DNA of 33,699 bases, taken from UHGV virus genome UHGV-0139590, one strand, 5' to 3'. Shown here piece after piece: positions 7,491-25,317 of this stretch. The stretch comes from a virus. The stretch's first letter is position 1, and each line of letters begins with the position of its first letter. The notes under the pieces were generated by a model. That model saw only the letters and a program-made list of their open reading frames with translations, was not told the DNA's origin and did no database searches. Both the position numbers and the translations under genes were made by a program.

Positions 7491-7510
7491 CAAAGTACAG
7501 ACTCAATAAC
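7491..7510 (+). promoter_or_regulatory. Conserved promoter-like box, copy 1 (CAAAGTACAGACTCAATAAC)
   Basis: Matches boxes at 12045, 12443, 20413 and partly 25250. Located about 35 nt upstream of the tail-fibre operon start. Confidence 0.4.
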
Positions 7511-7544
7511 ATCCGATCGATGAATCAATCAACAGGAGTTGAAA

Positions 7545-8003
7545 ATGTCGGAAGTTATTTCTTATGCGTCAGCCACTGGCGCGCTCTATAAAGCACAACT
7601 GCTGGATTACTACTACACACGCCGCGCGGATTCAGCCATCGGTCTGGGTAAACGCTTCCAGATGATGAAAGCCTATTGGGGTAAGTCGAATCTGGTTAAG
7701 CAAAATCCGACTGGTGGCTGGACCATTGACGATATCCCTACCAACTTCACAAACGCCAATTTGCTGGGCAAGTTTGCCGAGTGCGATCTGATCTGTACCC
7801 GCCAGGGCGCAACCATCACCGTTAACGTAGTGCTGCCGGAAAGTAAGCTGCCTGCTAACGCCGTGTATGACTTCAATACCCTGACGCTGGTTGATGCTGA
7901 TGGCGTCGCTTTTGCGGTTCTCTGCGCGCAGCAGGACAGCATCTACAAAGGCAAGATTTACAGCATCCTTCTGACCATCGAACAGAAAGGTAGCGGCGCA
8001 TGA
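7545..8003 (+). CDS. Small tail-fibre-operon protein (152 aa), function unknown
   Basis: ATG 7545 with AGGAG 6 nt upstream (an in-frame TTG at 7539 is less likely). Stop overlaps the next start (ATGA). Confidence 0.6.
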   Translation: MSEVISYASATGALYKAQLLDYYYTRRADSAIGLGKRFQMMKAYWGKSNLVKQNPTGGWTIDDIPTNFTNANLLGKFAECDLICTRQGATITVNVVLPESKLPANAVYDFNTLTLVDADGVAFAVLCAQQDSIYKGKIYSILLTIEQKGSGA

Positions 8004-10096
8004 GTGAGACAATTAGCGGGGTATCCATCCTGAGCGCGGAAACCAAGCGCGCGCTGGTGGCCGACGTTCAGTTTTTTGAAACCTATACGTCCGCCGCCTT
8101 TAACCGCAAGATGCGCGGCATTGTTAAACCTGGTTTTTACGCCGGATTTGATGCCGTGCTGGCTGGCGGGCTTAAAATCAACATCACGTCGGCAAACGAA
8201 TCAGGAAAGCGCGGCGTAGCCTCCGTGGACGTGGGCGAATATCAGATTTCCGTCCAGCAGGTTGAAGATGTCGGCTTTACACTGCCAGCGGGCGCAACCA
8301 CGCGCGTGGTGCTGGAAGCCAACTATCAGAATGGCGTGAAAACAAACCAGGTTGATTCGAACTCCGGCATTCAGGCGGCGCGACTCTTCCTGGCAGATGT
8401 AAGCGTGGCGCTGGCCGGTAATCAGCTGGAGCTATGCCGCTTTACCGTGCCTGCCGGTACGGTAAATTTAACCCAGGCTATGCTGAGCAAGCAAAATCGC
8501 CCGGATAAATCCATCGGCATTGAGCTGAGCAACGACGCTGAAGGCAGTACCACCGAGGGCGATGCTTACAAAGCCGCCACCATCGCAGCACTTAAACGCG
8601 CACTGGCTCTTTCGGTACAGGCGCGGGGTGAGTTGCCCGATACTGCCAATCTTAACAAATACGGCCCTACGCCAGATCGTGTCGGTCAGTGGAGCAAGTC
8701 AACGGCAACCGGCGCGACCATCGTCAATGGCTACCCGGAAAATGACGCTATCGGGGTTGTTGAGGTGTCTAAAGCCGGTGCCTCGAATGGGACCCAGCGA
8801 TTCACTCTGGTAAATGGCAATGTTTATACCCGCTCACTGACCGCCGCATGGAATGGCGTGGATGGGCCGTGGGGTGCTTGGAATGCGCCGTATGAAGAAG
8901 CCCCATTCCCTGATGTATGGATTCCATTAAATGACAGCCTGACTATGCTTGCCGGTTTCGGCCCATATGACCGCATTACTTTTGGAGATCAATATGCCGA
9001 GCTGCCAACCCGTAGTGTAAAACTGACCCGCGCAACGACGGCAACGTATATCGACAAATCCGGTGTGCTACAGGTTGCAGACATCAACGAGCCGCGTTTC
9101 GAGAAAGAGGGGTTGCTGATTGAAGGGCAGAGCACCAATTTGCTCAGATGGTCATCACCAGTACAGACTTCAGGCACATTTCGAAATAGTCCAAATGTAG
9201 GAATTTCTTTCTTACCCGCTGGCGGTGTTGAGTTAACAAAAGAGGCGAGCACTGGATTTTGGTTCGAACAAAACACAGGGGCTACAGACTATGATCCTGC
9301 TAATTCTGCGGCATTATCTGTCAACCTGAAATTTAAGGACGGTTTGGACGTAAGGCTGCAACTTCTTCGTTATTCAAGCGAAGGCGATGTCGGCGTTGCG
9401 TCTATCTCCGCAGTCAACGGTCGTAATACATTATCTATACCGGTGGTCGGCGGCACAGTTTTGCAGCGTTTAGGTCTGCGCATCACAGTGGGTGATACTG
9501 TTCCAATTGGGGAGGTGGTGATTGTTGATCGTATGCAAATTGAGCCTCAGGCGATCGCTACTTCGTACATCCCAACAAACGGATCACCAGTAACCCGCGC
9601 GGCTGACAATTGCACCCTACCACGCTCAGGAAATGACAACTATTACGGTGAGTTTTCCTATAGCGTTGAGGTGCATGCTAACGGTTTAACTCAAACAAGT
9701 TCAGACGCAAATGACCGTAGACATATTCTCTCTATATTCCCTTCATCTACTGAATGGGTCATGAGCTACATGGAGCCATCAGCAGGCTCAACGGGTAAAG
9801 TGCGCCAGACCTATGGCCCCGCGACTTATATCCAAAGCTCAAAAGCAATAGATGATGGGAAAACGCATCTTGTGGCGTTCACAACGAACTTGATTAAAAA
9901 TGCCCTTACAGTGGATGGCAGCGAGGTCGCTATTGGGACACAAGTCAGACCGGTTCCAGGCTCAGTTTCTGCTATTAACCAACTTATTGTTTTGGGTGCA
10001 ACTTCCTCACCCACGCGCATGTTAAACGGCCACCTTCGCAATCTTCGCATCTGGCACAAAACGTTAACTCCTAATCAAATCAAAGGGCTCCGCTAA
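8000..10096 (+). CDS. Tail fibre protein with C-terminal LamG-like (concanavalin-type lectin) domain (698 aa)
   Basis: C-terminus LNGHLRNLRIWHKTLTPNQIKGLR fits the Laminin_G_3 pattern common in phage fibres. The central block (PFPDVWIPLNDSL...TATYIDKSGVLQVADINEPRFEKEGLLIEGQSTNLL) is shared with the downstream paralogue. Confidence 0.75.
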   Translation: MSETISGVSILSAETKRALVADVQFFETYTSAAFNRKMRGIVKPGFYAGFDAVLAGGLKINITSANESGKRGVASVDVGEYQISVQQVEDVGFTLPAGATTRVVLEANYQNGVKTNQVDSNSGIQAARLFLADVSVALAGNQLELCRFTVPAGTVNLTQAMLSKQNRPDKSIGIELSNDAEGSTTEGDAYKAATIAALKRALALSVQARGELPDTANLNKYGPTPDRVGQWSKSTATGATIVNGYPENDAIGVVEVSKAGASNGTQRFTLVNGNVYTRSLTAAWNGVDGPWGAWNAPYEEAPFPDVWIPLNDSLTMLAGFGPYDRITFGDQYAELPTRSVKLTRATTATYIDKSGVLQVADINEPRFEKEGLLIEGQSTNLLRWSSPVQTSGTFRNSPNVGISFLPAGGVELTKEASTGFWFEQNTGATDYDPANSAALSVNLKFKDGLDVRLQLLRYSSEGDVGVASISAVNGRNTLSIPVVGGTVLQRLGLRITVGDTVPIGEVVIVDRMQIEPQAIATSYIPTNGSPVTRAADNCTLPRSGNDNYYGEFSYSVEVHANGLTQTSSDANDRRHILSIFPSSTEWVMSYMEPSAGSTGKVRQTYGPATYIQSSKAIDDGKTHLVAFTTNLIKNALTVDGSEVAIGTQVRPVPGSVSAINQLIVLGATSSPTRMLNGHLRNLRIWHKTLTPNQIKGLR

Positions 10097-10380
10097 TGAG
10101 AGATCTGTATTTGCGTTTTGCTGATGCCGAAGAAATGCACCAGCAATTGACCGATTTTGGCTTCCAGGCGGATGAAGATCAGGGCGTTATTTATCACCCT
10201 GAGATCTGCCTTGATGTCGTTGGCGTTATCAGCACGGTGACAGGTGAAGACGAAGCGGCTGTATATGCCACCGAACCCGGTTTTCACGTAAACATTCGTG
10301 TGATTAATGATCAGTTGGATTTGTCGGGCTTAAGTGAATTCGCCGTTTACCCGAAGACCCCAGCTCGCGTGTGGGCGTAA
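10096..10380 (+). CDS. Small fibre-associated protein (94 aa), paralogue of 11703..11990
   Basis: ATG overlaps the fibre stop (TAATG). MRDLYLRFADAEEM...YHPEICLDVVGV...PARVWA closely parallels the second copy. Confidence 0.6.
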   Translation: MRDLYLRFADAEEMHQQLTDFGFQADEDQGVIYHPEICLDVVGVISTVTGEDEAAVYATEPGFHVNIRVINDQLDLSGLSEFAVYPKTPARVWA

Positions 10381-10389
10381 GGAAATATC

Positions 10390-11703
10390 ATGGCATTAAG
10401 AAAAGACTTTATTGAAATGAAAGAAGATGCTCCGTTCCCAGATGTCTGGGTGCCGCTGAGCGACAGTCTACGCTTGCTGGCGGGGTTGGCTCCCTTCGAT
10501 AAACAGATGGCCCACGACCCAGCATTGGAATTGACTTCAAAATCGGTGACGCTTACCCGCGCTTCTACGGCAACTTATATTGATAAAGCTGGTGTACTGA
10601 AAACAGCGGCGATAAACGAGCCTCGCTTTGAAAAAGAGGGTTTATTGATTGAGGGGCAGAGCACTAACCTCTTAATCAATAGCGAAGATCCAACAAAGTG
10701 GGGGACGTTTACTCTTTTAGACATTTCAACCCTTAGGGATGGCACGACACAGGCAGCGACGGTTAAAGGCACGGTAAATGCGACCAATGACACCAATAAT
10801 ATTTGGTTATGTGGTAGCCCCAGCCTTCCTGCCGTGGTGGGTGATGTATGGACCTTATCCGCACGTTTCAAGGCCTCCTCACATAGAGTTCGCCTCCGGT
10901 TTACCATCGACGGCGTGCAATTAGGTGACGTATTTTTCGACGGTGTTACAGGTGAGCAAGTCAGGGGTTTGTCCGGCGGCGTTACATACACTACAAAGCG
11001 GGGAAGCGACGGGTATATTTACGTTAGCGCCACAATCACAACGTCAATAGCGGGGTTGTTAGTCGGACAATTTTGGTTTAATGATGACGCACCAATTCCC
11101 GCTGGTTCGTTTGTCTGCCTGCAAACCATCCAGTTGGAAAAAAACGCAGTAGCAACCAGTTATATTCCAACGGGATCAGCCGCTGTTACGCGAGCTACTG
11201 ATGTCTGCACGCTTCAACGTTACGGTAACGACAACTACTTCGGACCCGTCACTTTTTCCGCAGAGATTCACCTTAACGGGAAAACTAACGCAGACGGTGC
11301 AATGACTTCTCGTCGAGGGATCATATCGGCTAAACCGTCATCAACAGAGTCTTACACGCTGATGTTGGCTACATCCGGCGCAAATGCAGGGAAACCGTGC
11401 TTTGGATACGGCAATAGTGATTTCGTCTACGGCTCTACGGGTCTTGATGATGGGAAAGGTCATGTTGTAGTCGCCAGATTTGACGGCTCTGACAAGTATC
11501 TGTGTTCAGATGGGGTAATGTCAGTAGGTCGCGCAGCAACTAAACCGGCATCAGGAAATGTGGATGCCACGAACCAAAATATCCAGATCGGTTACGGTGC
11601 TGCTTATGTTACGCCGGGGCACTCAGTGCTAAACGGCCACATTAGAAACATTCGTATCTGGCATCGCGCGCTTAATGATCGCCAAGTTAAAGGAATTCGC
11701 TGA
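10390..11703 (+). CDS. Second tail-fibre cassette with LamG-like C-terminus (437 aa), lacks the N-terminal ~290 aa of the first fibre
   Basis: ATG 10390 with AAGGAAAT upstream. Begins at the conserved block shared with the 698-aa fibre. C-terminus LNGHIRNIRIWHRALNDRQVKGIR. Confidence 0.7.
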   Translation: MALRKDFIEMKEDAPFPDVWVPLSDSLRLLAGLAPFDKQMAHDPALELTSKSVTLTRASTATYIDKAGVLKTAAINEPRFEKEGLLIEGQSTNLLINSEDPTKWGTFTLLDISTLRDGTTQAATVKGTVNATNDTNNIWLCGSPSLPAVVGDVWTLSARFKASSHRVRLRFTIDGVQLGDVFFDGVTGEQVRGLSGGVTYTTKRGSDGYIYVSATITTSIAGLLVGQFWFNDDAPIPAGSFVCLQTIQLEKNAVATSYIPTGSAAVTRATDVCTLQRYGNDNYFGPVTFSAEIHLNGKTNADGAMTSRRGIISAKPSSTESYTLMLATSGANAGKPCFGYGNSDFVYGSTGLDDGKGHVVVARFDGSDKYLCSDGVMSVGRAATKPASGNVDATNQNIQIGYGAAYVTPGHSVLNGHIRNIRIWHRALNDRQVKGIR

Positions 11704-11990
11704 TGAGAGATTTATATTTACGCTTCGCAGATGCGGACGAAATGCAGATGGTATTACTGGCCTTGGGTTTTCAGAAAGAAGAAGAGCAAGCCGGTCTTTA
11801 TCACCCTGATATCTGCCTCGATGTGGTGGGCGTTATGACCGAGCCTCAAAACCCGGAAGAAGAGAACCCTGATCTGATTGAGTTACCTGGCTATCATGCT
11901 AATGTGCGTGTCATTGACGATCAGCTGGATATTTCAGCGCTGGATGACTTCACCATCCACCCGGAAACACCGTCGCGCGTCTGGGCGTGA
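11703..11990 (+). CDS. Small fibre-associated protein (95 aa), paralogue of 10096..10380
   Basis: ATG overlaps the upstream stop (TGATG). Same sequence pattern as the first copy. Confidence 0.6.
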   Translation: MRDLYLRFADADEMQMVLLALGFQKEEEQAGLYHPDICLDVVGVMTEPQNPEEENPDLIELPGYHANVRVIDDQLDISALDDFTIHPETPSRVWA

Positions 11991-12015
11991 TGCACAGTTC
12001 TCCCCACATTAACAA

Positions 12016-12037
12016 AGCGCCTCCGGGCGCTTTTTTT
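12016..12037 (+). terminator. Rho-independent terminator (AGCGCC-TCCG-GGCGCT + T7)
   Basis: Perfect 6-bp stem, 4-nt loop, 7 T. An identical copy lies at 12414-12435. Confidence 0.65.
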
Positions 12038-12044
12038 GTACCCA

Positions 12045-12064
12045 CAAAACACAGACGCAATACC
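12045..12064 (+). promoter_or_regulatory. Conserved promoter-like box, copy 2 (CAAAACACAGACGCAATACC)
   Basis: Directly follows the terminator; about 25-40 nt upstream of the small membrane-protein gene. Confidence 0.4.
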
Positions 12065-12087
12065 TTCGGAGCGGGAAATTAAACACA

Positions 12088-12390
12088 ATGATGGGAGTAG
12101 CCATGAAGGATTTAACGCCGATTTATCACGCGATAGTCGCGGTTTTTGTGCAGTGCCTGATCGGTTTTATAACCGGCGCGTGGGGATTTGGTGGGGCGAT
12201 AGGCTGCGTGTGGTTTATTGCCCGCGAACATACCCAGGCGGAGTATCGCTGGATAGCTCGCTTCGGGAACGGTAAGCGCGCCAACATGCCGTGGTGGGGT
12301 GGTTTTGATTACAGGGTATGGAATATCGCCAGTGCCTTTGATTTTCAGGTGCCGGTGCTGGCCTGCATTATCGTTTACACCCTCACCTGA
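12088..12390 (+). CDS. Small membrane protein, possible holin/antiholin (95-100 aa)
   Basis: Three in-frame ATGs (12088, 12091, 12103). GGGAG sits 5 nt before ATG 12103 (MKDLTPIY...). Hydrophobic segments IVAVFVQCLIGFITGAWGFGGAIG and VLACIIVYTL. Bracketed by identical terminators. Confidence 0.5.
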   Translation: MMGVAMKDLTPIYHAIVAVFVQCLIGFITGAWGFGGAIGCVWFIAREHTQAEYRWIARFGNGKRANMPWWGGFDYRVWNIASAFDFQVPVLACIIVYTLT

Positions 12391-12413
12391 TCCCTTTATT
12401 CATATTTTATGTA

Positions 12414-12435
12414 AGCGCCTCCGGGCGCTTTTTTT
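12414..12435 (+). terminator. Rho-independent terminator, identical to 12016-12037
   Basis: AGCGCCTCCGGGCGCT + T7. Confidence 0.65.
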
Positions 12436-12442
12436 ATGCCCT

Positions 12443-12462
12443 CAAAACACAGACTCCATACC
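12443..12462 (+). promoter_or_regulatory. Conserved promoter-like box, copy 3 (CAAAACACAGACTCCATACC)
   Basis: About 38 nt upstream of the GTG start of the holin-like gene. Confidence 0.4.
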
Positions 12463-12499
12463 ATCCAGGCTCGAAGGGAAATTGAGAAAAGGTGGGAAT

Positions 12500-12814
12500 G
12501 TGTTCGAGTTGGAAACAAGTTTGATCCATGTCCTCGCCCTATCCCTTCTCAGTGGCTCCGGCGTGTTCCTGCATGGGGTGCGTGACGGAAGGATTAAGGG
12601 AAATTTCCTGAATTTTATCACTGAGTGGGTCCTGGCAGTGCTGGCTGGGCTGACAGCGTATTACGTCGCCCAGCATAAAGAATGGGAGCAAAGCCTGATG
12701 TATCTGGCGGTGCTGGTGGCGAGTAATAACGGGCGAGAAGTAACAAGTGCGCTTAAGGACCGATTTATTGCTGCAATGCAGTTTATGTTCGGTCCGAAAG
12801 GAGGTGAAAAATGA
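12500..12814 (+). CDS. Holin, lambda S-like class I (104 aa)
   Basis: GTG 12500 with AAGGTG 6 nt upstream. The longer ORF-track version (12299) runs across the terminator and promoter box, so is not used. Three hydrophobic segments and a KDRF...AAMQ C-terminus parallel lambda S. Confidence 0.55.
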   Translation: MFELETSLIHVLALSLLSGSGVFLHGVRDGRIKGNFLNFITEWVLAVLAGLTAYYVAQHKEWEQSLMYLAVLVASNNGREVTSALKDRFIAAMQFMFGPKGGEK

Positions 12815-13266
12815 TGAGTAATTTGCAGGAGTATTGCTTTTACGGAATGGCCGCGCTGGCCGTCTTTGATCGCTTCATCCTGAAACGTAAAAAAATCAGA
12901 CTGGTGGAGTGTGGTGATGCCGTGGTGCGGGGGCAGGCGCTGGCATTCCCGCTGCGGTTTAACGTCTCTTGCTCCCGCCTGACTGGCGCAATGGTCGAGT
13001 ACAGCCTGCGTGACTCCAAAAACCCGACGGCGGTTATCACCGGTAAGACGCGGACGCTGGATTTATCAGTAAAAGGGATGAACGAAGAGTATTTGCTGAT
13101 TGACCAACGCTACCTGGAGGCCGGGACGTGGTTTCTATCGGTCCGTGTCACTCATGGCAACAGCCGCATGAATCCGTTATACCGAATTTTCCCGGTTCAG
13201 GAATCAATTACGCACAATTACAGCGTCACAAAAGATGAGCAGGGGGTTTTCAGTGTCAGCAACTAA
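12811..13266 (+). CDS. Hypothetical protein (151 aa) with N-terminal hydrophobic segment
   Basis: ATG 12811 with strong SD AGGAGGTG; overlaps the holin stop. Confidence 0.55.
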   Translation: MMSNLQEYCFYGMAALAVFDRFILKRKKIRLVECGDAVVRGQALAFPLRFNVSCSRLTGAMVEYSLRDSKNPTAVITGKTRTLDLSVKGMNEEYLLIDQRYLEAGTWFLSVRVTHGNSRMNPLYRIFPVQESITHNYSVTKDEQGVFSVSN

Positions 13267-16895: not shown

Positions 16896-16901
16896 AACAA
16901 G

Positions 16902-16924
16902 GCCCCGGAAACGGGGCTTTTTTT
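16902..16924 (+). terminator. Rho-independent terminator (GCCCCG-GAAA-CGGGGC + T7)
   Basis: Seven nt after the stop of the 112-aa gene; perfect stem and T-run. Confidence 0.7.
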
Positions 16925-16925
16925 G

Positions 16926-18135
16926 GTTCGCCGGTCGAAATCACAGCGTTTTATCCGTAATAGATTCAACGTTTATAAGGATGAACGGTTATTGACATCT
17001 TCCCGCCCTAAAGGATGGGGATTCCTACAGCCAGACGGCGATGCCCCGCCGCGAGAATGTTCTTTGCGGCGTTTACGTCGCGGTCGTGAGCGGTTCCGCA
17101 CTCACAACAAGTCCAGTCTCTTATTCGCAAGCCTGCTCTACCTTTCGGACTGTTAGCGGAGATAGCCCCGCAACACGAACAAGCCTGGGTGGAATATTTT
17201 TCGTTAACGACTTCGAACACTACCGACCGCGCAATCGCTTTGTATTTCAGTTGTGTTTTGAGCATGAACCAGCCAGCGTCCAGAACGCTTTTAGCCATTT
17301 TGGTTTTAACCAGTTTCTTACTGCTCACGTCGCCTACGAATATTGCCGCATGGCTGTTTACCAGTGCCGTGCTGTACTTATGCAGTGCATCTTTGCGGCG
17401 GTTCTTAATTTTGGCGTGAATGGCGCGTACGCGGGCTTTTTTGTTCGCCCTCTGCGCCTTGCCTAATGCGGGTTGCAGGTCACGATAAAACCTACCTGCA
17501 ACCAGTGGATCACCCTCTGACGGGGTGGCGTAGTCCTTTAATCCCAGATCTATGCCGATAGCTGTTATTCCCGTTGTCGGGGTGGTTTCGACTTCTACGC
17601 AGACATTGAAATACCAGCGCCCCCGACTATCTTCTGAAAAGCTACCGGCGCGGAATTTATAACCCGCCAGTCCGTAGCTATCCCACACCTTAAAATAGTG
17701 GCCTGCGAACTTGACGCAGCCATTTTGCCATTGCGCCTGCTTCGATTTAAACGGCACCCAGCCCAGAGAACGGCGAGCTCCGCCACTGACACGCCAGCGC
17801 AGACGCGAGCGTTTAAACTGCTTCCGCGCTTTGCCGTGGTCTGCGATCACTTCCTGCACCGTGGCGCTGCCGATGATATAGCCGCGCTCTTTCTGAATAC
17901 CTGCCGTCATCTTCTGAACGTCGAACGCCGACAGCCAGCGGGGAATTTGCGCACCAAAAGCGCCAGCGTTGCTGTATGCCTCGCTGGTTATCTCGTTTGC
18001 CAGATTAAAGACCTGATTGACCTCAAAGGCCATCTGCCGCAAAACGGCGGCGTGGCGGTCTTTAACCCGGACGGATAATGTTTTGATGCGCGTATTCATG
18101 CTCATTACTCCCGCCCGCAGGCGGGAGCCTCCGGG
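16926..18135 (-). mobile_element. IS200/IS605-family insertion element carrying only tnpB (IS1341-like); boundaries approximate
   Basis: Single TnpB ORF, with a perfect 8-bp stem / 4-nt loop hairpin (18108-18127) immediately upstream of its start, as in subterminal left-end hairpins of this family. No tnpA and no terminal inverted repeats, as expected. Confidence 0.6.
17008..18105 (-). CDS. tnpB: TnpB (IS605 OrfB-family RuvC-like, RNA-guided nuclease family), 365 aa
   Basis: RuvC-like motifs GIDLGLKDYATPSEG and HDRDVNAAKNIL; zinc-finger cysteines CSCCG...CCECG near the C-terminus. ATG 18105 with GGGAG upstream. Confidence 0.8.
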   Translation of the reverse strand: MSMNTRIKTLSVRVKDRHAAVLRQMAFEVNQVFNLANEITSEAYSNAGAFGAQIPRWLSAFDVQKMTAGIQKERGYIIGSATVQEVIADHGKARKQFKRSRLRWRVSGGARRSLGWVPFKSKQAQWQNGCVKFAGHYFKVWDSYGLAGYKFRAGSFSEDSRGRWYFNVCVEVETTPTTGITAIGIDLGLKDYATPSEGDPLVAGRFYRDLQPALGKAQRANKKARVRAIHAKIKNRRKDALHKYSTALVNSHAAIFVGDVSSKKLVKTKMAKSVLDAGWFMLKTQLKYKAIARSVVFEVVNEKYSTQACSCCGAISANSPKGRAGLRIRDWTCCECGTAHDRDVNAAKNILAAGHRRLAVGIPIL

Positions 18136-18666
18136 TTAGATCACAAACCAGTCTTCGGCCTGCTCGTCATTCAGCGAAGGGAAAAATTCCACCTCACCTC
18201 CATTAGAATCGAGCAAAAATAAATCATCATTTTCAATGAGAACGTAGCTCGCCGGAACCCAGCTAAGACGCCCTATGAATCGACCAGTACGCGCTGAAAA
18301 ACGCAGTGCTAATTCATACTTCACGTTGCGCCCCCGAAATATTCCAGTAGTTAATCTGAGGGCGATTTGTCGCAGTAAACCGGGCAGAAAAGATACAAGG
18401 TGCGTCGGGTAGTTGAGAACGGGCTTCGGATTCGCTTGCAGCAATAACCGTGTGATAGCGGCGTTTCTGGCAGGAATAGAAGCGCCATATAAATTCAGAG
18501 TGAATCTGGGTAGGGATTGCCAGCATGAGCTGATCTCCGATAACAGTTTAAAACTATCACCACCTGGAGTTTCCACGCTCTGATTGGTGGTGACGCTGAC
18601 GGGGGTGGAAATACCGGCGTTATCGGGAACCGGCCAGCCCGAGAGCTGCCCCGCCAGCGCCACCAT
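18136..18666 (-). CDS. Hypothetical protein (176 aa), weak call
   Basis: Longest ORF in a region with several overlapping ORFs on both strands. No clear SD. Ends exactly at the IS left boundary. No HUH motif, so not TnpA. Confidence 0.3.
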   Translation of the reverse strand: MVALAGQLSGWPVPDNAGISTPVSVTTNQSVETPGGDSFKLLSEISSCWQSLPRFTLNLYGASIPARNAAITRLLLQANPKPVLNYPTHLVSFLPGLLRQIALRLTTGIFRGRNVKYELALRFSARTGRFIGRLSWVPASYVLIENDDLFLLDSNGGEVEFFPSLNDEQAEDWFVI

Positions 18667-18718
18667 AATTTTGTGCGGATCTGTGCCGCTGAATATGGGG
18701 GTACTGACTTACGACAAT

Positions 18719-18741
18719 AAAAAAAGACGCCTGGCGCGTCT
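18719..18741 (-). terminator. Hairpin (AGACGC-CTGGC-GCGTCT) with T7 on the minus strand
   Basis: On the minus strand the stem is followed by TTTTTTT; on the plus strand it is preceded by A7. Confidence 0.4.
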
Positions 18742-18994
18742 GTTGTCGCCGATAACAATTTGCCGGGTTTCCACGCCCGTGCAGACCTTTTTCGTCTGCG
18801 AGAGCAAATGTAACCACCCGGAATGCAGTTTGCAACCACTTTGATTACATATCGGATGACAACAACATTGCCATACTGTCATACAATCGCACTGTAATAC
18901 AATAACAATTAGATTTACTGTTATTTTTCTTCGGTCAGTTGATTGCACATAGTTCATATCATCCCGTTACCGAAAACAGTTAGAGGGCAGGGCA

Positions 18995-20374: not shown

Positions 20375-20380
20375 TTGAAA

Positions 20381-20402
20381 GCCCGCTTAATGCGGGCTTT
20401 TT
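20381..20402 (+). terminator. Rho-independent terminator (GCCCGC-TTAAT-GCGGGC + T5)
   Basis: Seven nt after the stop of the ParB-like gene. Confidence 0.65.
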
Positions 20403-20412
20403 CTGGTCTGTG

Positions 20413-20432
20413 CTAAAACACAAACTGATTAC
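20413..20432 (+). promoter_or_regulatory. Conserved promoter-like box, copy 4 (CTAAAACACAAACTGATTAC)
   Basis: Follows a terminator and precedes the hydrolase gene by about 33 nt, the same arrangement as copies 2 and 3. Confidence 0.35.
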
Positions 20433-20464
20433 GGTGAATTCTTCTTTCAACTGAGGAATTCACT

Positions 20465-25249: not shown

Positions 25250-25269
25250 AAAATACAGACCACTTAGAA
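25250..25269 (+). promoter_or_regulatory. Partial copy of the conserved promoter-like box (AAAATACAGACCACTTAGAA)
   Basis: Core AAAA-N-ACAGAC matches the other four copies; the downstream half is divergent. About 50 nt upstream of the DarB-like start. Confidence 0.25.
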
Positions 25270-25317
25270 TTGCGCTGATTTTATCGGGTCTATGTTTTGC
25301 AGACACAAGGTTAAAAA

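Follow-up and report, generated by a model that had tools for sequence, protein, structure and literature searches.

Duplicated terminator and late-promoter-like cassettes flank a small putative membrane-protein gene in a divergent P1-like viral genome

The UHGV virus genome UHGV-0139590 was analyzed as one stretch of 33,699 nucleotides (nt), hereafter the window. Between its tail-fibre operon and its lysis/dar operon lies a small gene for a predicted membrane protein, and on each side of this gene stands a copy of the same composite cassette, a terminator hairpin followed by a late-promoter-like box. Judged by gene content and order, the window is a divergent P1-like phage-plasmid, distant from P1 itself. 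In the reading that we consider likely, the terminator and late-promoter cassette of this P1-like clade was duplicated around an inserted small gene, which gave separate late transcription units. The argument is built on what was observed directly: the anatomy of the locus, the genome-wide distribution of the promoter-like motif, relatives with an empty site, a duplication of old age and a gene under purifying selection. The features of the junction are listed below, with lengths of products in amino acids (aa).

11703-11990, + strand: gene for a 95-aa fibre-associated protein (phrog_1361), the last gene of the tail-fibre operon and a paralogue of the gene at 10096-10380
12016-12037, + strand: T1, intrinsic-terminator hairpin AGCGCC-TCCG-GGCGCT followed by T7; predicted end of the fibre operon
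12046-12066, + strand: LP1, late-promoter-like box AAAACACAGAC with spacer GCAA and −10 element TACCTT (12061-12066); derived (paralogous) copy and predicted driver of the small gene
12103-12390, + strand: small gene for a predicted membrane protein (phrog_1443), 95 aa from the third ATG; the open reading frame (ORF) is open from 12088 (100 aa)
12414-12435, + strand: T2, hairpin and T7 identical to T1; predicted end of the small-gene unit
12444-12464, + strand: LP2, late-promoter-like box AAAACACAGAC with spacer TCCA and −10 element TACCAT (12459-12464); ortholog of the single module in relatives with an empty site and positional equivalent of P1 LPdar
12500-12814, + strand: gene for a lydA-type holin with a GTG start, the first gene of the lysis/dar operon
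12811-13266, + strand: lydB, encoding the LydA antagonist (PF16084, E 6e-28)

The two cassettes are copies of one direct repeat of 53 nt (12015-12067 and 12413-12465), 89% identical and offset by 398 nt from start to start. The first 23 nt of the copies are identical, and hairpin and T-tract agree at 22 of 22 positions. The corresponding 22-mer, AGCGCCTCCGGGCGCTTTTTTT, has just two occurrences in the window, also when up to three mismatches are allowed; no occurrence is expected by chance, and none was found in any of 100 shuffled sequences. A preliminary description of this DNA had stated that identical modules of terminator and promoter box bracket one small membrane-protein gene, and it is borne out as to the repeat, the 22-mer, the ORF and their coordinates. 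Past the 53 nt, likeness of the two copies in the 5′ untranslated region (GGGAAATT...TGGGA) is marginal (99 of 2000 shuffles score equally, p ~0.05) and is not claimed here.

Each copy has a GC-rich hairpin, with a stem of 6-8 bp and a loop of 4 nt, directly adjoined by a U-tract, which is the defining structure of an intrinsic (Rho-independent) terminator; T1 and T2 are therefore predicted terminators. A terminator scan detected both, and their fold energies (−14.0 kcal/mol, z −5.0 for T1; −12.8 kcal/mol, z −3.2 for T2) were not equalled by any shuffle. An Rfam search with the hairpins gave sub-threshold matches only. The loops, at 12022-12025 and 12420-12423 in the window and at the same places in related loci (L001, L010, L011 and L024-26), are mostly of the UNCG type (UCCG, UUCG or UACG) on invariant stems; in L011 the second copy has the loop UGGU and the first has a G·U pair in its stem.

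Box and −10 element have the form AAAnYACAGAY-N4-TANNNT in this clade. The motif AAANYACAGAYNNNNTANNNT has eight matches in the window with at most two mismatches, where 1.2 are expected and where none of 100 shuffles reaches eight; the six best matches, with no more than one mismatch each, lie without exception between genes and point toward the downstream gene. Besides LP1 and LP2, the sites are the following.

7492-7512, + strand: before the R-like gene and the fibre operon, at the position of P1 LPs
20415-20435, + strand: one mismatch, before the lysozyme-like gene, at the position of P1 LPlyz, with a different terminator hairpin directly ahead
25250-25270, + strand: before the darB-like gene
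25278-25298, − strand: one mismatch, before the portal gene, at the position of P1 LPpro

The complete relative pE1_003 has 11 matches with at most one mismatch (0.4 expected), again all intergenic and correctly oriented; they include one before mat and one before a gene in the annotated terminase region. The motif is thus located ahead of operons for late morphogenesis, lysis and packaging: R-like gene and fibres, lydA, lyz and portal in the window, and in pE1_003 also mat and the terminase region. Late promoters of P1 (LPs, LPdar, LPlyz, LPpro and LPpac), as annotated in NC_005856, consist of a 9-bp ‘−22’ element, 4 nt and a TANNNT −10 element, without a −35 element (LPdar is AAGTTACTT-TGCA-TACCAT and LPs is AAGTTACTT-ATCT-TACAAT). 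P1 promoters of this type require the phage activator Lpa, which works with the host protein SspA. The window boxes have the same build: they share the 4-nt spacing to TANNNT, the −10 element of LP2 is the TACCAT of LPdar, and they sit before the same late operons as LPs, LPdar, LPlyz and LPpro. All 12 modules aligned in this work retain TA...T. No pair of sigma-70 −35 and −10 elements was detected in 12000-12500. By analogy with P1, we take AAAnYACAGAY to be a clade-specific variant of the P1 late-promoter element and conclude that the box is the predicted activator-dependent late promoter of this clade, the activator presumably being Lpa-like. What had been described as a ‘promoter-like box’ is promoter-like, and can be specified as the probable equivalent of a P1 late promoter.

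The relative pE1_003 (L021 and L022) encodes, at 74365-74775, a 136-aa ‘hypothetical protein’ homologous to Lpa (28% identity over 74 residues, E 1.6e-7). It is the only detectable Lpa homologue, lies outside the window and is a putative partner of the AAAnYACAGAY box. Two boxes of the window stand back to back within 49 bp (25250-25298), one facing the portal gene and the other facing the darB-like gene. For darB, P1 is annotated with a sigma-70 promoter at the equivalent place; the darB gene of this clade may therefore be under late control.

The same junction was compared among relatives. Megablast of the region against a phage collection gave no match, and two Leclercia adecarboxylata plasmids are 83% identical to the window across part of the region. 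A scan of genome contigs with a single LydB sequence gave no match; relatives came from an alignment-based scan. Four relatives (L007 and L024-L026: Pantoea agglomerans pFC61912-B_D, Enterobacter sp. BRE11, ‘Ca. Pantoea borealis’ and Pantoea sp. GD03673), with LydB 57-60% identical to that of the window, have tfa, a single hairpin with box, and then lydA, without the small gene. Their single-module consensus, …CAGCGCC-NNNN-GGCGCTG TTTTT … AAATTACAGACT.. TAC.CT … lydA, has hairpin and box at the same place as the window. In IMG/VR, searched with a sequence pattern, another 21 P1-like contigs proved to have one module and to lack the small gene; two contigs have the gene, both of the two-module kind (2 of 23 P1-like matches). 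The gene is also missing from more distant P1-like elements (L023, L008, L009, L027-29 and P1), among them Citrobacter NCU1, a D6-like E. coli plasmid and an Enterobacter plasmid with a cin-like recombinase. The comparison with related phages suggested in the preliminary description, for presence of the gene between the fibre and holin operons, therefore gives at least 25 P1-like loci with a single module and no gene versus eight loci with the gene and two modules. All gene-bearing relatives (L001, L004-6, L010, L011, L045 and L055) carry both modules.

An alignment of 12 modules has as its invariant blocks the hairpin stem, the T-tract, AAA..ACA.A and TA...T. One group unites the single modules and the lydA-proximal copies (spacer CTCC, −10 element TACCAT or TACCCT), and a second is made up of the upstream copies (spacer GCAA or AAAA, −10 element TACCTT or TATCTT); LP1 is conserved in L010, L001, L011, L045 and L055. 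This grouping points to one duplication in the common ancestor of the gene-bearing clade, so that the two modules are, as had been proposed, true duplicates of one ancestral junction of terminator and promoter. The synonymous divergence (dS) of the small gene between the carrying lineages is 0.7-1.5, and the duplication that they have in common is therefore ancient. Given this age, the identical hairpins in the window reflect constraint on a working stem and not recency; in L001, L010 and L011 the loops differ and the stems are kept. Gene conversion between the copies was considered as a cause of the identity and is not needed, as loop changes with constant stems fit selection on the stem.

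The cassette lies at a border between sequences of different history. Stretches of 300 nt on either side of the module were compared in 22 single-module loci (among L007, L024-26 and L042-L066). Those on the right (lydA side) make up one cluster with median identity 0.91 and those on the left (fibre side) six unrelated clusters with median identity 0.65, which places the cassette on a mosaic boundary. Thus, fibre cassettes have been exchanged up to the hairpin, and the lysis/dar operon past the hairpin has been conserved. In L011 and L055 the sequence before the first module differs again.

The small gene has the start region with three ATGs (MMGVAMK) and a Shine-Dalgarno sequence before the third one, as described earlier: GGGAG lies 6 nt ahead of the third ATG (12103), and the product starts MKDLTP…. 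Homologues align from the third ATG, with the family consensus start M-x-D-[LFI]-[ST]-P. The two upstream ATGs are not conserved (TTG in L001, a single ATG in L011, out of frame in L055). In an AlphaFold2 model of the 95-aa protein (predicted local distance difference test score 93), residues 5-24, 27-54 and 75-94 form three helices, in agreement with hydropathy; a hydrophobic, small membrane protein, as claimed before, is therefore what model and hydropathy predict. Between helices two and three is a highly conserved polar segment.

The family, phrog_1443, is large: clustering at 90% leaves 387 close homologues, and at 50% identity there are ∼400 clusters. Every member is a stand-alone protein of ∼60-140 aa, mostly 90-120 aa. 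Residues H9, R41, E42, Q45, A46, E47, W73 and P84 are conserved family-wide, and the window protein has the conserved core WFIAREHTQAEYRWI…GKR.NMPWWGGFD.R.W. Between the carrying lineages the ratio of nonsynonymous to synonymous divergence (dN/dS) is 0.11-0.26 at the dS values given above, which indicates purifying selection. Searches of Pfam, NCBIfam and PADLOC were negative for the small protein and likewise for 55 diverse members of its family; no PDB sequence match and no informative fold match was found for the small protein, and a full-text literature search for the conserved peptide and for the late promoters of the clade found no paper.

Genomic contexts of the family are varied. In the λ-like phages 21 and ev243, a side tail fibre gene, a 92-aa gene and the small gene are contiguous; in the P22-like JEP4, a tailspike gene is followed by an overlapping small gene and then int; in E. 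coli prophages (L012-15), a gene for a 626-aa protein is followed by an overlapping small gene and then by a holin/endolysin/spanin cassette. Enterobacter prophages have GpJ, a pectate-lyase-type tailspike and then the small gene, and a 160-kb Salmonella contig has a family member between two tailspike genes. The exceptions are a member in the early-gene region of one phage and a member 3′ of a KpsF-like SIS+CBS gene. Across these contexts the near-invariant family core reads AREHTQAEYRWI…GKR.NMPWWGGFD.R.W, and no function is annotated anywhere. Family members 3′ of receptor-binding genes were located as follows.

L003, 2629-3210
L016, 3713-4297
L017, 3986-4285
L012, 5001-5300
L036, 4001-4294
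L039, 4001-4297

Six of the eight contexts link the small gene to receptor-binding genes, and lysis genes adjoin it in only two. Since the receptor-binding proteins encoded upstream have unrelated folds, what stays constant is the location immediately 3′ of a gene for such a protein, for the most part in late transcripts. The closest named relative is CPT_21_24 of phage 21, a ‘putative membrane protein’ of phrog_1443 that is 59-62% identical to the window protein, of similar length and with the same core. In phages 21 and ev243, the small gene is co-transcribed with the side tail fibre genes and has no terminator or promoter of its own, whereas the window gene is predicted to have both. Tentatively, we see in the protein a late-made accessory factor of the inner membrane that belongs with the receptor-binding module and has a part in adsorption or exclusion, perhaps by altering or masking a receptor in the envelope; such a role is possible, and its fit to the data is weak. 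On a short metagenomic contig (L032, 630-1950), a 47%-identical member lies directly 3′ of the SIS+CBS gene (KpsF/GutQ-like arabinose-5-phosphate isomerase), a possible hint at a link to precursors of lipopolysaccharide or capsule.

These data can be combined into a proposed history. In this clade, the boundary between the fibre and lysis/dar operons would be a hairpin and T-tract followed, ∼9 nt on, by an activator-dependent late promoter of the P1 type. A segment of ∼345 nt with the small gene would have been inserted at this junction in the ancestor of the Leclercia-type lineage, with the cassette duplicated on both sides. Three units would have resulted: LPs would drive the R-fibre genes and the transcript would stop at T1; LP1 would drive the small gene, with the stop at T2; LP2, the equivalent of LPdar, would drive lydA and the genes beyond. 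Expression of the small gene would be late, insulated from that of the genes on either side and probably weaker than that of lydA (−10 element TACCTT versus TACCAT). The insertion itself may have occurred by a single crossover of the resident cassette with a cassette-bearing circle, or by unequal crossover between two genomes; flanking direct repeats would be explained, because either route would leave them.

Several observations weigh against this history. The promoters, the terminators and the activator dependence are predicted from motif logic and the P1 analogy, and the upstream element of P1, AAGTTACTT, is palindromic, whereas AAAnYACAGAY is unrelated to it in sequence and is not palindromic; the P1 box itself has six matches in the window versus 11.5 expected, i.e. 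below chance. Gain is preferred to loss by outgroup parsimony and not by a rooted tree. With a GC content of 0.54, versus 0.49-0.52 for its neighbours, the small gene is ordinary in composition. In the IMG/VR scan the hairpin alone was found in five unrelated phage contigs (L041, L046, L048, L059 and L064); only hairpin and box combined are diagnostic. Finally, in the λ-like phages the small gene lies directly behind the same fibre type and the 92-aa gene with no terminator between, and therefore it may have arrived with a fibre cassette, the upstream module being placed later. That alternative, in which the fibre gene, the 95-aa gene and the small gene came as a whole from a λ-like phage, draws on the side tail fibres of phages 21 and ev243, which are 28-33% identical to the window fibres over ∼430 aa. 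It requires two events where one suffices, however, and in L011 and L055 the small gene and both modules are preserved next to an upstream sequence that is unrelated (L011 is without the 95-aa gene); family members also stand behind unrelated tailspikes. We consider this course of events rather unlikely. It is also unlikely, and we would call it improbable, that the state with gene and two modules is ancestral and that single-module relatives arose by deletion between the repeats. Recombination of the 53-nt repeats, with their 23 identical bases, would leave one hybrid module with a left flank like that of copy 1 and a promoter like that of copy 2, as single modules indeed look. Yet all the more distant P1-like relatives examined, P1 included, are without the gene, the gene-bearing clade is narrow among the IMG/VR matches, and gene and both repeats have been stably kept across the divergence of the carrying lineages.

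Two further alternatives concern the nature of the parts. If the modules were not homologous duplicates but independent cases of a common terminator type joined to the standard promoter of the clade, then the hairpins in unrelated contigs would be accounted for, and the window does have other junctions of terminator and promoter (16900-16947 and 20380-20435). Those junctions use different hairpins, however, and the AGCGCC...GGCGCT type, which independent origin would make frequent at other late-operon junctions of the clade, is not frequent there; only the pair around the small gene shares hairpin, T-tract, box spacing and flanking bases (53 nt, 89%), consistently in eight genomes, and single-copy relatives hold the same hairpin at the same site. 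Independent origin is thus hardly credible. Scarcely better is the idea that the small protein acts with LydA and LydB in lysis, be it as a dual-start holin/antiholin, as raised in the preliminary description from the three ATGs, or as a regulator of another kind. The gene does lie directly upstream of lydA and, in the E. coli prophages, directly upstream of a holin-endolysin-spanin cassette; the protein has three hydrophobic helices; and the same slot of P1 holds the holin-like lydC. But the small protein has no similarity to P1 LydC and matches no holin family, with one of 55 family members giving a sub-threshold match to Phage_holin_8 only. A pair of the λ S105/S107 type has two conserved in-frame starts and a positive charge on the longer form, whereas here homologues begin at the third ATG, the extra ATGs are unconserved and the MMGVA extension is uncharged. 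The charged C-terminal tail of holins is replaced by a hydrophobic C-terminal helix, and consistent linkage to endolysin was not found: in λ-like phages, P22-like phages and Enterobacter prophages the gene is behind a receptor-binding gene with no adjoining lysis genes. A position tied to receptor-binding genes and not to lysis genes argues against a holin or antiholin, and the proposed likeness is not upheld.

The closest analogue of the duplicated cassette is found in the promoter-early stem-loop (PeSL) cassettes of T4-type phages, which are composite terminator/promoter motifs that lie in intergenic regions and flank single accessory ORFs (PMC2839356, PMC4122927). In the PeSL model, homologous recombination takes place between cassettes, including circular intermediates, and the model has experimental support (Arbiol et al. 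2010, PMC2839356; Comeau et al. 2014, PMC4122927). Both kinds of cassette mark insertions or deletions between close relatives, as was found here. The PeSL promoter is a strong sigma-70 early promoter with the hairpin inside it, whereas the window cassette has a predicted activator-dependent late promoter with the hairpin upstream. PeSL cassettes number ∼50 copies per genome, concentrated in hyperplastic regions; the window has one pair sharing sequence. The element hosting the window cassette is a temperate phage-plasmid, and mini-circles count as a feature of the PeSL type. One may speculate that the cassettes are portable recombination substrates, a temperate late-promoter counterpart of PeSL, so that crossovers from cassette to cassette, perhaps via small circles, would add and remove single genes where operons meet, and that the captured gene belongs to a large family of late inner-membrane proteins that travels with receptor-binding genes in λ-like, P22-like, P1-like and large virulent phages and acts on the envelope or receptor, e.g. 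by blocking adsorption of progeny or of superinfecting phages; we regard this larger picture as doubtful.

Morons are single extra genes with their own promoter upstream and terminator downstream, present in some relatives only, and classical morons are expressed from a repressed prophage. They are reportedly known from lambdoid phages (work of 2000 attributed to Juhala and colleagues and to Hendrix and colleagues). The insertion of a moron-like gene, as first suggested for this locus, holds in part. The small gene is an accessory gene, empty sites are numerous among otherwise collinear relatives (25 loci without the gene versus eight with it), and promoter and terminator of its own, LP1 upstream and T2 downstream, are recognizable by sequence. 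The sole promoter-like element, though, is of the late type with no sigma-70 match, from which late expression of the gene is predicted, unlike that of a prophage-expressed moron. Nor does the gene stand out in base composition. P1 differs from the window in having cin and the holin-like lydC, not the small gene, between its fibre region and LPdar, just ahead of lydA (NC_005856), and in having no duplicated cassette; the putative activator of the clade, at 28% identity, is also far from P1 Lpa. The locus is a well-documented gain of one gene as its own transcription unit, and not a new kind of system.

Assignment to the P1-like group was made from homologues of LydA, LydB, DarA_N/DarA_C, Hdf, DdrA, Ulx, portal, P1 gp16 and R, which occur in the window in P1 order: sit…, gp16-like, R-like, fibres, small gene, lydA-lydB-hdf-darA-ddrA, … lysozyme-like (lyz), head-processing, portal, darB-like and ulx. 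The fibre genes upstream of the junction are as follows.

8000-10096, + strand: tail fibre gene, followed by a 94-aa gene (phrog_1361) at 10096-10380
10390-11703, + strand: second fibre gene (437 aa), followed by the 95-aa gene

The 95-aa gene (11703-11990) has a homologue in phages 21 and ev243, namely the 92-aa gene located behind their side tail fibre gene. The two fibre genes are in tandem on the same strand, each with a phrog_1361 gene of 94-95 aa behind it, and there is no Cin-type invertase. The N-terminal part is missing from the second fibre, of which residues 12-107 match residues 299-394 of the first at 66% identity. It resembles the P1 ‘Sv’ segment with a start codon of its own, and may join the virion as a branched fibre or via recombination between the repeated segments. 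Past ddrA, at ∼16900-18960, another terminator hairpin is followed by the start of a late-promoter box (AAATCACAG, 16939-16947), behind which is an insert of ∼2 kb with a transposase gene (17008-18105, − strand) and a regulator-like ORF (18136-18666, − strand); a −10-like TATCAT resumes near 18957. Judged against pE1_003 (AAATCACAGAGCTTTTACCAT), an element resembling an insertion sequence seems to have split the ddrB late promoter.

The finding does not alter current concepts of phage mosaicism. As a record of the addition of a gene to a temperate phage-plasmid with the neighbouring genes left undisturbed, the locus is unusually clean; occupied and empty sites, both repeats and many relatives can be compared. 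The late-promoter consensus AAAnYACAGAY-N4-TANNNT, which would pair with a divergent Lpa homologue, is usable for annotation of late operons in the P1-like clade of Leclercia, Pantoea, Enterobacter and Citrobacter. A widespread and strongly conserved small protein, predicted to reside in the membrane and encoded next to receptor-binding genes, is a candidate for a role in exclusion or receptor masking.

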